NCBI RefSeq assembly: GCF_988243305.1 | Contig: NZ_OZ547136.1 | Strand: one strand, 5' to 3' | DNA length: 64,000 nucleotides | Shown: positions 10,046 to 60,337 of the stretch, piece after piece | Numbering within the stretch: the stretch's first letter is position 1 | Layout of the letters: the number at the start of each line of letters is the position of its first letter | Notes under the pieces: model-generated | Seen by the model: only the letters and a program-made list of their open reading frames with translations | The model's database searches: none | Told to the model about the DNA's origin: nothing | Translations under genes and position numbers: made by a program

Positions 10046-10165
10046 TGCCTGGCGGCCTTAGCGCGGTGGTCCCACCTGACCCCATGCCGAACTCAGAAGT
10101 GAAACGCCGTAGCGCCGATGGTAGTGTGGGGTCTCCCCATGCGAGAGTAGGGAACTGCCAGGCAT
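10046..10165 (+). rRNA. rrfB: 5S ribosomal RNA (rrnB operon)
   Basis: TGCCTGGCGGCC...GGGAACTGCCAGGCAT, 120 nt. Confidence 0.95.
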
Positions 10166-10179
10166 CAAATTAAGCAGAA

Positions 10180-10207
10180 GGCCCAGTCGGAAGACTGGGC
10201 CTTTTTG
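10180..10207 (+). terminator. rrnB intrinsic terminator (single hairpin + T-tract)
   Basis: GGCCCAGTC-ggaa-GACTGGGCC followed by TTTTTGCG. Confidence 0.7.
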
Positions 10208-10299
10208 CGTTTCTACAAACTTTCCCTGTCGTCATAACTACAAGCCATCCCCCCACAGATACGGTAAACTAGCCTCGTTTTTGCATCAGGAAAGCAGCT

Positions 10300-11328
10300 A
10301 TGAACCACTCCTTAAAACCCTGGAACACATTTGGCATTGATCATAATGCTCAGCACATTGTATGTGCCGAAGACGAACAACAACTACTCAATGCCTGGCA
10401 GCATGCAACCGCAAAAGGACAATCCGTTCTTATTCTGGGTGAAGGAAGTAATATACTTTTTCTGGAAGACTATCGCGGTACGGTGATCATCAACCGGATC
10501 AAAGGTATCGAAATTCATGATGAACCTGATGCGTGGTATTTACATGTAGGAGCCGGAGAAAACTGGCATCGCCTGGTAAAATACACTTTGCAGGAAGGTA
10601 TGCCTGGTCTGGAAAATCTGGCATTAATTCCTGGTTGTGTCGGCTCATCACCTATCCAGAATATTGGTGCTTATGGCGTAGAATTACAGCGAGTTTGCGC
10701 TTATGTTGATTGTGTTGAACTGGCGACAGGCAAGCAAGTGCGCTTAACTGCCAAAGAGTGCCGTTTTGGCTATCGCGACAGTATTTTTAAACATGAATAC
10801 CAGGATCGCTTCGCCATTGTAGCCGTAGGTCTGCGTCTGCCAAAAGAGTGGCAACCTGTACTAACGTATGGTGACTTAACTCGTCTGGATCCTACAACAA
10901 TAACGCCACAGCAAGTATTTGATGCGGTGTGTCATATGCGCACCACCAAACTTCCTGACCCAAAAGTGAATGGCAATGCCGGTAGTTTCTTCAAAAACCC
11001 TGTTGTATCTGCCGAAACGGCTAAAGCATTACTGGCACAATTTCCAACAGCACCAAATTATCCCCAGGCGGATGGTTCAGTAAAACTGGCAGCAGGTTGG
11101 CTTATCGATCAGTGCCAGCTAAAAGGGATGCAAATGGGTGGGGCTGCGGTGCACCGTCAACAGGCGTTAGTTCTCATTAATGAAGACAATGCAAAAAGCG
11201 AAGATGTGGTGCAACTGGCACACCATGTAAGACAAAAAGTGGGTGAAAAATTTAATGTCTGGCTTGAGCCTGAAGTCCGCTTTATTGGTGCATCAGGTGA
11301 AGTGAGCGCAGTGGAGACGATTTCATGA
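10300..11328 (+). CDS. murB: UDP-N-acetylenolpyruvoylglucosamine reductase MurB, 342 aa
   Basis: ORF track; recognised product; ATGA overlap with birA. Confidence 0.9.
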
Positions 11329-46539: not shown

Positions 46540-48081
<1,542 letters not shown>

Positions 48082-48435: not shown

Positions 48436-51339
<2,904 letters not shown>

Positions 51340-51431: not shown

Positions 51432-51551
51432 TGCCTGGCGGCCGTAGCGCGGTGGTCCCACCTGACCCCATGCCGAACTCAGAAGTGAAACGCCGTAGCG
51501 CCGATGGTAGTGTGGGGTCTCCCCATGCGAGAGTAGGGAACTGCCAGGCAT
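51432..51551 (+). rRNA. rrfE: 5S ribosomal RNA (rrnE operon)
   Basis: TGCCTGGCGGCC...GGGAACTGCCAGGCAT, 120 nt. Confidence 0.95.
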
Positions 51552-51565
51552 CAAATTAAGCGAAA

Positions 51566-51591
51566 GGCCATCCGTCAGGATGGCCTTTTTG
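51566..51591 (+). terminator. rrnE intrinsic terminator
   Basis: GGCCATCC-gtca-GGATGGCC followed by TTTTTGCG. Confidence 0.75.
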
Positions 51592-51607
51592 CGTTGGTGA
51601 AAAAAAT

Positions 51608-51643
51608 GCCGGGTGCGACGCTGGCGCGTCTTCTCCAGCCTGG
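51608..51643. repeat. REP-like (repetitive extragenic palindrome) sequence
   Basis: GCCGGGTGCGACGCTGGCGCGTCTTCTCCAGCCTGG resembles the E. coli REP family (GCCKGATGCGRCG...RCGYCTTATCMGGCCTAC) with mismatches. Confidence 0.45.
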
Positions 51644-51663
51644 GCAGGCACGGCAGGGGCAGC

Positions 51664-52107
51664 TTATTCCCCCACATACGCCAGATTCAGCAACGGATAC
51701 GGTTTCCCCAAATCGTCCACCTCAGAGCGTCCCGTAACCTTAAAACCCATCTTCTTATAGAACCCAACAGCCTGCTTATTTTGCTCATTAACATTGGTTG
51801 TCAGTTCCGGTGCCATCGAGAGCGCATGTTCCACCAGCATCCGACCCACGCCGCAGCCGCGCACATCAGGATCGATAAACAGCGCATCCATATGCTGCCC
51901 ACTTAACAACATAAACCCAACCGGCCGATCCCGCTCATTAACCGCGACCCACAACGGCGCTTCCGGCAGGAAGGAACGAACTAGCTCCTCCAGCTCGGCC
52001 CGATACTCTGCTGATAAAAAATCGTGAGTGGCATCGACAGAACGACACCAAATCGCAACCAGTTCCTCCCCTTCCTCATGCCGTGAGCGGCGAATACTAA
52101 TAACCAT
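51664..52107 (-). CDS. yjaB: GNAT-family N-acetyltransferase YjaB, 147 aa
   Basis: ORF track; acetyl-CoA binding region RGCGVGRMLVEHAL. Confidence 0.85.
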   Translation of the reverse strand: MVISIRRSRHEEGEELVAIWCRSVDATHDFLSAEYRAELEELVRSFLPEAPLWVAVNERDRPVGFMLLSGQHMDALFIDPDVRGCGVGRMLVEHALSMAPELTTNVNEQNKQAVGFYKKMGFKVTGRSEVDDLGKPYPLLNLAYVGE

Positions 52108-52263: not shown

Positions 52264-53193
52264 ATGCCGATTCGTGTGCCGGACGAGCTACCCGCCGTCA
52301 ATTTCTTGCGTGAAGAAAACGTTTTTGTGATGACAACTTCTCGTGCGTCTGGTCAGGAAATTCGTCCACTTAAGGTTCTGATCCTTAACTTGATGCCGAA
52401 GAAGATTGAAACTGAAAATCAGTTTCTGCGCCTGCTTTCAAACTCACCTTTGCAGGTCGATATTCAGCTGTTGCGCATCGATTCCCGCGAATCGCGCAAC
52501 ACGCCCGCAGAGCATCTGAACAATTTCTACTGTAACTTTGAAGATATTCAGGAACAAAACTTTGACGGTCTGATAGTTACCGGCGCGCCGCTGGGCCTGG
52601 TGGAGTTTAATGATGTCGCTTACTGGCCGCAGATCAAACAGGTGCTGGAGTGGTCGAAAGATCACGTCACCTCGACGCTGTTTGTCTGCTGGGCGGTACA
52701 GGCCGCGCTAAATATCCTCTACGGCATTCCTAAGCAAACTCGCACCGACAAACTCTCTGGCGTTTACGAGCATCATATTCTCCATCCTCATGCGCTTCTG
52801 ACGCGTGGCTTTGATGATTCATTCCTGGCACCACATTCGCGCTATGCTGACTTTCCGGCAGCGTTGATTCGTGATTACACCGATCTGGAAATTCTGGCAG
52901 AGACGGAAGAAGGGGATGCATATCTGTTTGCCAGCAAAGATAAGCGAATTGCCTTTGTGACGGGCCATCCCGAATATGATGCGCAAACGCTGGCGCAGGA
53001 ATATTTCCGCGATGTGGAAGCCGGACTAGACCCGGAAGTACCGTATAACTATTTCCCGCACAATGATCCGCAAAACAAACCGCGAGCGAGCTGGCGTAGT
53101 CACGGTAATTTGCTGTTTACCAACTGGCTCAACTATTACGTCTACCAGATCACGCCATATGATCTACGGCACATGAATCCAACGCTGGATTAA
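52264..53193 (+). CDS. metA: Homoserine O-succinyltransferase MetA, 309 aa
   Basis: ORF track; [28 protein letters not shown]... Confidence 0.9.
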
Positions 53194-53461: not shown

Positions 53462-55063
53462 ATGACTGAACAGGCAACAACAACCGATGAATTGGCTTTC
53501 ACAAGGCCGTATGGCGAGCAGGAGAAGCATATTCTTACTGCCGAAGCGGTAGAATTTCTGACTGAGCTGGTGACGCATTTTACGCCACAACGCAATAAAC
53601 TTCTGGCAGCGCGCATTCAGCAGCAGCAGGATATCGATAACGGAACGTTGCCTGATTTTATTTCGGAAACAGCTTCCATTCGTGATGCTGACTGGAAAAT
53701 TCGCGGGATTCCTGCGGACTTAGAAGATCGTCGGGTAGAGATTACCGGCCCGGTTGAGCGCAAGATGGTGATCAACGCGCTCAACGCCAATGTGAAAGTC
53801 TTTATGGCCGATTTCGAAGATTCACTGGCACCAGACTGGAACAAAGTGATCGACGGGCAAATTAACCTGCGCGATGCGGTTAACGGCACCATCAGCTATA
53901 CCAATGAAGCAGGCAAAATTTATCAGCTCAAGCCCAATCCAGCGGTGTTGATTTGTCGGGTACGCGGTCTGCACTTGCCGGAAAAACATGTCACCTGGCG
54001 CGGCGAAGCAATTCCTGGCAGCCTGTTTGATTTTGCGCTCTATTTCTTCCACAACTACCAGGCTCTGTTAGCAAAAGGCAGCGGTCCCTATTTCTATCTG
54101 CCGAAAACCCAGTCCTGGCAGGAAGCGGCCTGGTGGAGCGAAGTCTTCAGCTATGCAGAAGATCGCTTTAATCTGCCGCGCGGCACCATCAAGGCGACGT
54201 TGCTGATTGAAACGCTGCCCGCCGTGTTCCAGATGGATGAAATCCTTCACGCGCTGCGTGACCATATTGTTGGTCTGAACTGCGGTCGTTGGGATTACAT
54301 CTTCAGCTATATCAAAACGTTGAAAAACTATCCCGATCGCGTCCTGCCAGACAGACAGGCAGTGACGATGGATAAACCGTTCCTTAATGCCTACTCACGC
54401 CTGCTGATTAAAACCTGCCATAAACGCGGTGCTTTTGCTATGGGCGGCATGGCAGCGTTTATTCCGAGCAAAGATGAAGACCGTAATAACCAGGTGCTCA
54501 ACAAAGTAAAAGCGGATAAAGCGCTGGAAGCCAATAACGGTCACGATGGCACATGGATCGCTCACCCAGGCCTTGCGGATACGGCAATGGCGGTATTCAA
54601 CGACATTCTCGGCTCCCGTAAAAATCAGCTTGAAGTGATGCGCGAACAAGACGCGCCGATTACTGCCGATCAGCTGCTGGCACCTTGTGATGGTGAACGC
54701 ACCGAAGAAGGTATGCGCGCCAACATTCGCGTGGCTGTGCAGTACATCGAAGCATGGATCTCCGGCAACGGCTGCGTGCCGATTTATGGCCTGATGGAAG
54801 ATGCGGCGACGGCTGAAATTTCCCGTACCTCGATCTGGCAGTGGATCCATCATCAAAAAACGTTGAGCAATGGCAAACCGGTGACCAAAGCCTTGTTCCG
54901 CCAGATGCTGGGCGAAGAGATGAAAGTCATTGCCAGCGAACTGGGCGAAGAACGTTTCTCCCAGGGGCGTTTTGACGATGCCGCACGCTTGATGGAACAG
55001 ATTACCACTTCCGATGAGTTAATAGATTTCCTGACCCTGCCAGGCTACCGCCTGTTAGCGTAA
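53462..55063 (+). CDS. aceB: Malate synthase A, 533 aa
   Basis: ORF track 53444..55063 trimmed to [22 protein letters not shown]... Confidence 0.9.

Positions 55064-56436: not shown

Positions 56437-60337
<3,901 letters not shown>

Follow-up and report, generated by a model that had tools for sequence, protein, structure and literature searches.

The junction between the rRNA operon rrnE and yjaB in the window, by which we mean the whole 64-kb stretch of DNA analysed here, lacks yjaA and is almost certainly an ordinary allele of E. coli, slightly more frequent than its yjaA-carrying counterpart and part of a polymorphism that is already known. The 112 bp between the 5S gene and yjaB represent the common yjaA-null haplotype made up of a 5S trailer, a T2-type terminator, a linker, a decayed REP copy and a short tail, in which the yjaA ORF and its 3' spacer appear to have been replaced by a REP-containing stretch. 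We tentatively propose that the presence and absence of yjaA form an old two-haplotype system that predates E. coli and has been passed between lineages and species by recombination, rather than a clade-marking deletion, and that the yjaA+ haplotype of Escherichia may be a Superficieibacter-like import.

yjaA is absent between rrfE and yjaB

The window carries a complete rRNA operon, with the 16S gene at 46540-48081, a tRNA gene, the 23S gene at 48436-51339 and the 5S gene, rrfE, with which rrnE ends (51432-51551, plus strand). The 5S gene matched K-12 rrfE at 119 of 120 positions by BLAST and the Rfam model RF00001 (5S_rRNA) at 92.8 bits. Beyond it lies an intact yjaB on the minus strand (51664-52107), encoding a GNAT acetyltransferase of 147 aa that scored 277.8 bits to the equivalog NCBIfam model PRK10514 and has E as its last residue where K-12 has A, and then metA (52264-53193, plus strand). 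The gap between rrfE and yjaB, 51552-51663, is exactly 112 bp and comprises the whole intergenic region; this length, given in a preliminary description of the window, was reproduced from the BLAST end of the 5S gene and the yjaB ORF.

In the annotation of K-12 MG1655, rrfE occupies 4213040-4213159, yjaA (127 aa) 4213234-4213617 and yjaB 4213680-4214123, and the genes follow one another as rrfE, yjaA, yjaB, metA, aceB, aceA, aceK, arpA, in agreement with the gene order and the 127-codon yjaA on which the preliminary description had relied. The K-12 gap is 520 bp with yjaA inside; a K-12 gap that was also about 110 bp, which the description had named as evidence against its own reading, is therefore not what K-12 has. 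Both downstream spacings are equal in the window and K-12, as had been claimed, at 156 bp for yjaB-metA and 268 bp for metA-aceB, the latter on the assumption that aceB starts at 53462 (the start of the 533-aa K-12 form), and the view that the difference from K-12 is limited to the rrfE-yjaB junction was upheld.

A tblastn search of the 64 kb with six YjaA homologues from six genera gave a best E value of 0.3 and no match in the spacer, and nothing among the ORFs or in the translated sequence of the window resembled the YjaA family (NCBIfam NF041448), to which K-12 YjaA scores 177.4 bits. The primers yjaA.1b and yjaA.2b yielded the expected 211-bp product on K-12, our positive control, and had no sites in the window at up to 4 mismatches. 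With neither an ORF nor a remnant nor a primer site present in the window, the absence of yjaA between rrfE and yjaB, from which the preliminary description had set out, was borne out.

The window in the Clermont scheme

As that description had stated, yjaA serves as a phylogroup marker in the Clermont triplex and quadruplex PCR schemes (PMC4322292, PMC6113867). Using primer sequences from PMC4322292, we typed in silico the loci that lie within the window, a test that had been proposed for the full genome, and found them to be yjaA-negative and arpA-positive with a non-E arpA allele. The AceK.f/ArpA1.r pair produced a 400-bp arpA amplicon (57772-58171, plus strand) with one internal mismatch, and the arpA ORF itself is intact (58151-60337, minus strand; 728 aa). 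The group-E-specific arpA primers had 3'-terminal mismatches in the window, as they also had in K-12, and this test argues only against phylogroup E. The quadruplex profiles are (+ - - -) for A, (+ - - +) for B1 and (+ + - -/+) for D (PMC6113867, PMC4322292). The profile of the window, which is partial with chuA and TspE4.C2 lying outside it, points to phylogroup A, B1 or D and not to B2, C or F; placing the strain in one of these yjaA-negative, arpA-positive groups is routine typing and matters little.

The marker of the triplex (2000), quadruplex (2013) and ClermonTyping (2018) schemes concerns the same locus and the same presence/absence polymorphism as the window, with no difference in kind, and the typing literature that we found scores yjaA as a band. 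The papers returned by a search for yjaA together with yjaB did not cover the structure of the junction. Its anatomy, a T2 terminator and a REP replacement, is added detail on a known marker and no new phenomenon. The orthologue of arpA is labelled "espL4: type III secretion system effector EspL4" in many RefSeq genomes and is called an ankyrin-like regulator in K-12.

Anatomy of the 112-bp spacer

The spacer begins with a 7-nt 5S trailer, CAAATTA (51552-51558, plus strand), which in the alignments contains the final bases common to K-12 before the haplotypes part. Next to it is a candidate intrinsic terminator of rrnE of the rrnB-T2 type (51563-51590, plus strand), recognized by folding and by its likeness to K-12 rrnB T2. 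Its stem is formed by GGCCATCC (51566-51573) and GGATGGCC (51578-51585), which enclose a GTCA loop, with five T immediately downstream (51586-51590), so that an 8-bp stem with 6 GC pairs, a 4-nt loop and a T tract directly behind them provide the sequence features of an intrinsic terminator. The hairpin folded at -23.2 kcal/mol on the plus strand (z = -6.4, with 0 of 200 shuffled sequences folding as well) and at -20.4 kcal/mol on the minus strand (z = -5.3). An AAA run stands upstream of the stem, and it is because of these three A on its 5' side that the minus strand folds nearly as well as the plus strand. A consensus terminator scan called the spacer hairpin on the minus strand only, since on the plus strand the stem was extended through A/T pairs and too few T were left in the tail; direct folding showed the hairpin and its five T to be present on the plus strand despite this miss. 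We infer a role in rrnE termination from the position after the 5S gene and the similarity to K-12 rrnB T2, and the hairpin is a plausible candidate for a two-way terminator that would end rrnE transcription and, on the other strand, probably the convergent yjaB transcript too.

An A-rich linker, GCGTTGGTGAAAAAAAT (51591-51607), which by alignment is conserved in the spacers of yjaA-negative Escherichia, leads to a REP copy, GCCGGGTGCGACGCTGGCGCGTCTTCTCCAGCCTGG (51608-51643), identical by BLAST to the REP consensus at 31 of 34 positions over 51608-51641. The query, GCCGGATGCG...CTTATCCGGCCTAC, about 35 nt long, is the REP consensus; it occurred at 40 or more places per genome in 5425 of 5425 E. 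coli genomes, in unannotated DNA, as befits a genuine repeat family. A consensus search of the window allowing up to 3 mismatches gave no match, the local copy having 5 mismatches over 36 nt. The hairpin of this copy showed z values of +0.31 (plus strand) and -0.94 (minus strand), i.e., no stable stem-loop, and a near-consensus REP at the orthologous site in strain PE15 reached z = -3.65. The window REP is a decayed copy. Thus, both the rrnE terminator hairpin and the degenerate REP-like sequence that the preliminary description had placed in the gap were recovered, the former as a stem-loop with its T tract and the latter as a near match to the consensus whose own stem has decayed. The spacer ends with a 20-nt tail, GCAGGCACGGCAGGGGCAGC (51644-51663), that is conserved in yjaA-negative haplotypes and abuts the yjaB stop codon.

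Like REP/BIME elements, the window copy resembles a highly repeated consensus and is extragenic, lying between convergent transcription units, here flanked by the rrnE terminator and the stop codon of yjaB. It differs from them in being single and decayed, with a stem no better than that of shuffled sequence, and pattern search and BLAST revealed no further copy of the same REP type in the 64 kb. An Rfam search of the spacer at a permissive threshold revealed no known RNA gene, with naRNA4 (25.1 bits; gathering score, 59.5) and RNAI (23.5 bits) both below threshold. naRNA4 is presumably a REP-derived RNA, and a weak match to it would fit a REP-like sequence.

The spacer is not homologous to the yjaA interval of K-12

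In alignments, homology between the window and K-12 ended 7 nt past the 5S gene and resumed within the last codon of yjaB, where the window has ...VGE-TAA and K-12 has ...VGA-TAG. A word-7 BLAST of the spacer against the K-12 interval returned chance 7-mers only, two of which were co-linear (the trailer CAAATTA, and TTTTTGC downstream of the hairpin). A global MAFFT alignment had scattered matches of the 112 bp over the K-12 yjaA ORF, and these were spurious according to the word-7 BLAST. The K-12 hairpin, CCCCGG TCCAT AAGG CCGGGG, differs in sequence from that of the window. No breakpoint microhomology indicative of a mechanism was found between the spacer and the K-12 interval. The preliminary description was thus right to locate the difference at this junction, but a simple excision of yjaA did not hold up, as the entire interval from position 8 after the 5S gene to the last yjaB codon is non-homologous, with another hairpin and with a REP present.

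The yjaA-negative spacers of E. coli variants, Escherichia sp. E1V33 and MOD1-EC7003 aligned as one family. Variants of the null haplotype include LY180 and CFSAN061771, which have diverged linkers or hairpins, and E1V33, like PE15, has a near-consensus REP at the orthologous site. An unannotated spacer match in PE15 was considered as a paralogous source locus and rejected, for it is the rrnE-yjaB site with an extra T1 module. In SCPM-O-B-8794 (NZ_JAATUR010000012.1, labelled E. coli), yjaB-metA shares only about 92% identity with both the window and K-12, and the sequence past the yjaB stop is unrelated to either haplotype. This may represent a third kind of junction, carried by a divergent Escherichia.

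The yjaA-negative junction is the slight majority state in E. coli

Of 5426 complete E. coli genomes, 2832 (52%) lacked K-12 yjaA and 2594 carried it, with a coverage of at least 80% in 2587. The gene was nearly always single-copy (2601 places in the 2594 genomes), and the K-12 junction of 5S, yjaA and yjaB was present in 2586 genomes, i.e., 2586 of the 2587 carriers of full yjaA. The 931-bp junction of the window aligned at 80% or more in 5349 genomes, which, after subtraction of the 2586 with yjaA, leaves about 2763 with the 5S gene directly before yjaB. With a coverage cut-off of 80%, the window-type spacer was detected in 2356 or more E. coli genomes, and it was 100% identical in strains 7/2 and 98224. 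Since yjaA-negative is the slight majority state, this status says little about the strain.

The closest complete genomes among the 5426 were 98.4 to 98.9% identical over 0.9 to 18 kb of the window regions tested, and they include strains 7/2, YDC107 and PCN033 as well as the environmental isolates VCSW7 and LR778147. We take 7/2, YDC107 and PCN033 to belong to phylogroup D, two of the three presumably being ST405. Judged by these identities, the window lineage is an E. coli-level lineage without a representative in the 5426-genome collection. E. coli HH45 carries a divergent yjaA (NZ_CP116411.1, 4488234-4488495), annotated as a hypothetical protein and 89.7% identical over 73% of the gene, which was the sole match in the 80 to 90% identity band among the 2594.

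Probable exchange of the two haplotypes by recombination

Escherichia whittamii Sa2BVA5 (NZ_JACSQI010000001.1; compared with L001, 6091-9624) was compared with K-12 segment by segment. Its identity was 100% in the 5S tail and leader, 99.7% in yjaA, 95.2% in the short yjaA-yjaB spacer, 98.6% in yjaB and 99.4% in the yjaB-metA spacer, and it was 93.2% in metA and 92.4% in aceB. This profile indicates a recent cross-species import of a K-12-like yjaA+ segment into E. whittamii, with a putative breakpoint near the start of metA. PE15, on the other hand, is yjaA-negative, yet its yjaB-metA region is 99.86% identical to that of K-12. Both cases fit a shuffling of haplotypes in which homologous recombination uses the conserved rRNA operon as an anchor. 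Both haplotypes would have spread in this way among Escherichia, with one anchor in the near-identical rRNA operon and the other, across the junction, in yjaB/metA.

A patchy distribution of the yjaA marker among phylogroups would follow from such shuffling, which, if true, explains the homoplasy of the marker in phylotyping. What is scored as yjaA is a full haplotype replacement beside an rRNA operon, movable by recombination even across species, and caution is needed in that yjaA is no clean phylogenetic character.

Other Enterobacterales and the origin of the polymorphism

Phytobacter diazotrophicus and Kosakonia sp. S29 have the order 5S-yjaA-yjaB-metA-aceBA. The same yjaA-yjaB-metA-aceBA order was found in Superficieibacter sp. 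and Salmonella enterica subsp. salamae, whose draft contigs begin inside the 5S gene or a T2-type hairpin. Citrobacter youngae and Pectobacterium versatile are without yjaB and have yjaA directly before metA-aceBA, which suggests that yjaB itself is a variable insert at this junction; the 5S gene of P. versatile lies 130 nt upstream of yjaA, and the C. youngae contig begins in a T2-type hairpin. Such a hairpin precedes yjaA in Kosakonia, Phytobacter, S. salamae and C. youngae, and the hairpin of the K-12 yjaA+ haplotype resembles that of Superficieibacter, not the T2 type of most outgroups. The same yjaA-less layout as in the window, with a T2 hairpin, a linker, one or more REPs of their own type and yjaB, was found in S. 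enterica arizonae and diarizonae and in two Citrobacter species, so the null layout is either old or recurrent. Because the arrangement of an rrn operon, yjaA, a facultative yjaB and metA-aceBA is kept in several genera of Enterobacterales, the absence of yjaA is most simply a derived loss. On the basis of synteny in this handful of genera, from which the direction of the event was inferred, it is probably an old loss that was later shuffled by recombination.

Several other explanations were weighed against a shared, recombining pair of haplotypes. It is very improbable that yjaA was deleted recently, from a K-12-like yjaA+ junction, in the window strain or its close relatives. The limited identity of the nearest complete E. 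coli genomes marks a thinly sampled lineage that could harbour private events, but the identical spacer in unrelated strains, its homologues in at least 2356 genomes and in representatives of other Escherichia species, and the two co-linear 7-mers that are all it has in common with the K-12 interval argue that it is no deletion derivative. The null haplotype is instead an old shared allele and no private deletion of the window strain. We see next to no chance that a mis-join at the repeated rRNA operon removed yjaA from the assembly. rRNA operons are classic assembly breakpoints, and some of the draft contigs that we examined do end there; however, the same junction recurs in thousands of complete genomes, and in the window a unique non-rRNA spacer sequence runs continuously into yjaB. 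A relocation of yjaA to elsewhere in the source genome has an equally negligible probability, given that all but one of the E. coli genomes with full yjaA have it at rrfE-yjaB, nearly always as a single copy.

The remaining explanation, that absence is ancestral in Escherichia and that another enterobacterial genus supplied yjaA, along with a terminator variant, by recombination to A, B2, C and further lineages, so that the window never carried the gene, is doubtful but deserves some weight. The T2-type hairpin that the window shares with Salmonella, Citrobacter, Kosakonia and Phytobacter, set beside the Superficieibacter-like hairpin of K-12, speaks for it, and so does the crossing of the species border by a yjaA+ segment seen in E. 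whittamii. Moreover, E. coli YjaA is nearest to that of Superficieibacter (72% identity, against 63% to Salmonella), while YjaB and MetA are closest to those of Salmonella and Citrobacter, so that the YjaA identity matrix conflicts with the other two. YjaA is, however, a short and fast-evolving protein whose identity matrix is noisy, and the presence of yjaA in the same slot, between an rrn operon and metA-aceBA, in Enterobacterales as distant as Pectobacterium makes its presence ancestral deeper in the tree.

Terminator modules of the rrn operons

The window rrnE hairpin and its flanks (CATCAAATTAAGC..GGCCATCC....GGATGGCCTTTTTGCGTT) match the T2 unit of the T1-T2 array of K-12 rrnB, the hairpin being nearly identical. 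In contrast to that array, the window rrnE has T2 only, and the 169-bp T1 module is absent. This module consists of the T1 hairpin and a remnant of the 5S 3' end. Copies of an 18-nt direct repeat, derived from that 3' end, mark its boundaries, and operons with and without the module therefore seem to differ by repeat-mediated gain or loss. The yjaA-negative strains 405 (L003, 1713-1997) and PE15 (L010, 1340-1636) have the full array of T1, 5S remnant and T2 at rrnE, as in K-12 rrnB.

The rrnB operon of the window, viewed from its 5S gene to the start of murB (10046-10300), has a single hairpin, GGCCCAGTCGGAAGACTGGGCC (10178-10199), and a gap of 134 nt to murB; the K-12 rrnB-murB gap is 300 nt, with T1, the 5S remnant and T2. 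Neither rrn operon of the window thus has the 169-bp module. The hairpin at the window rrnB is the same as the rrnE hairpin of LY180, which suggests an exchange of terminators between operons.
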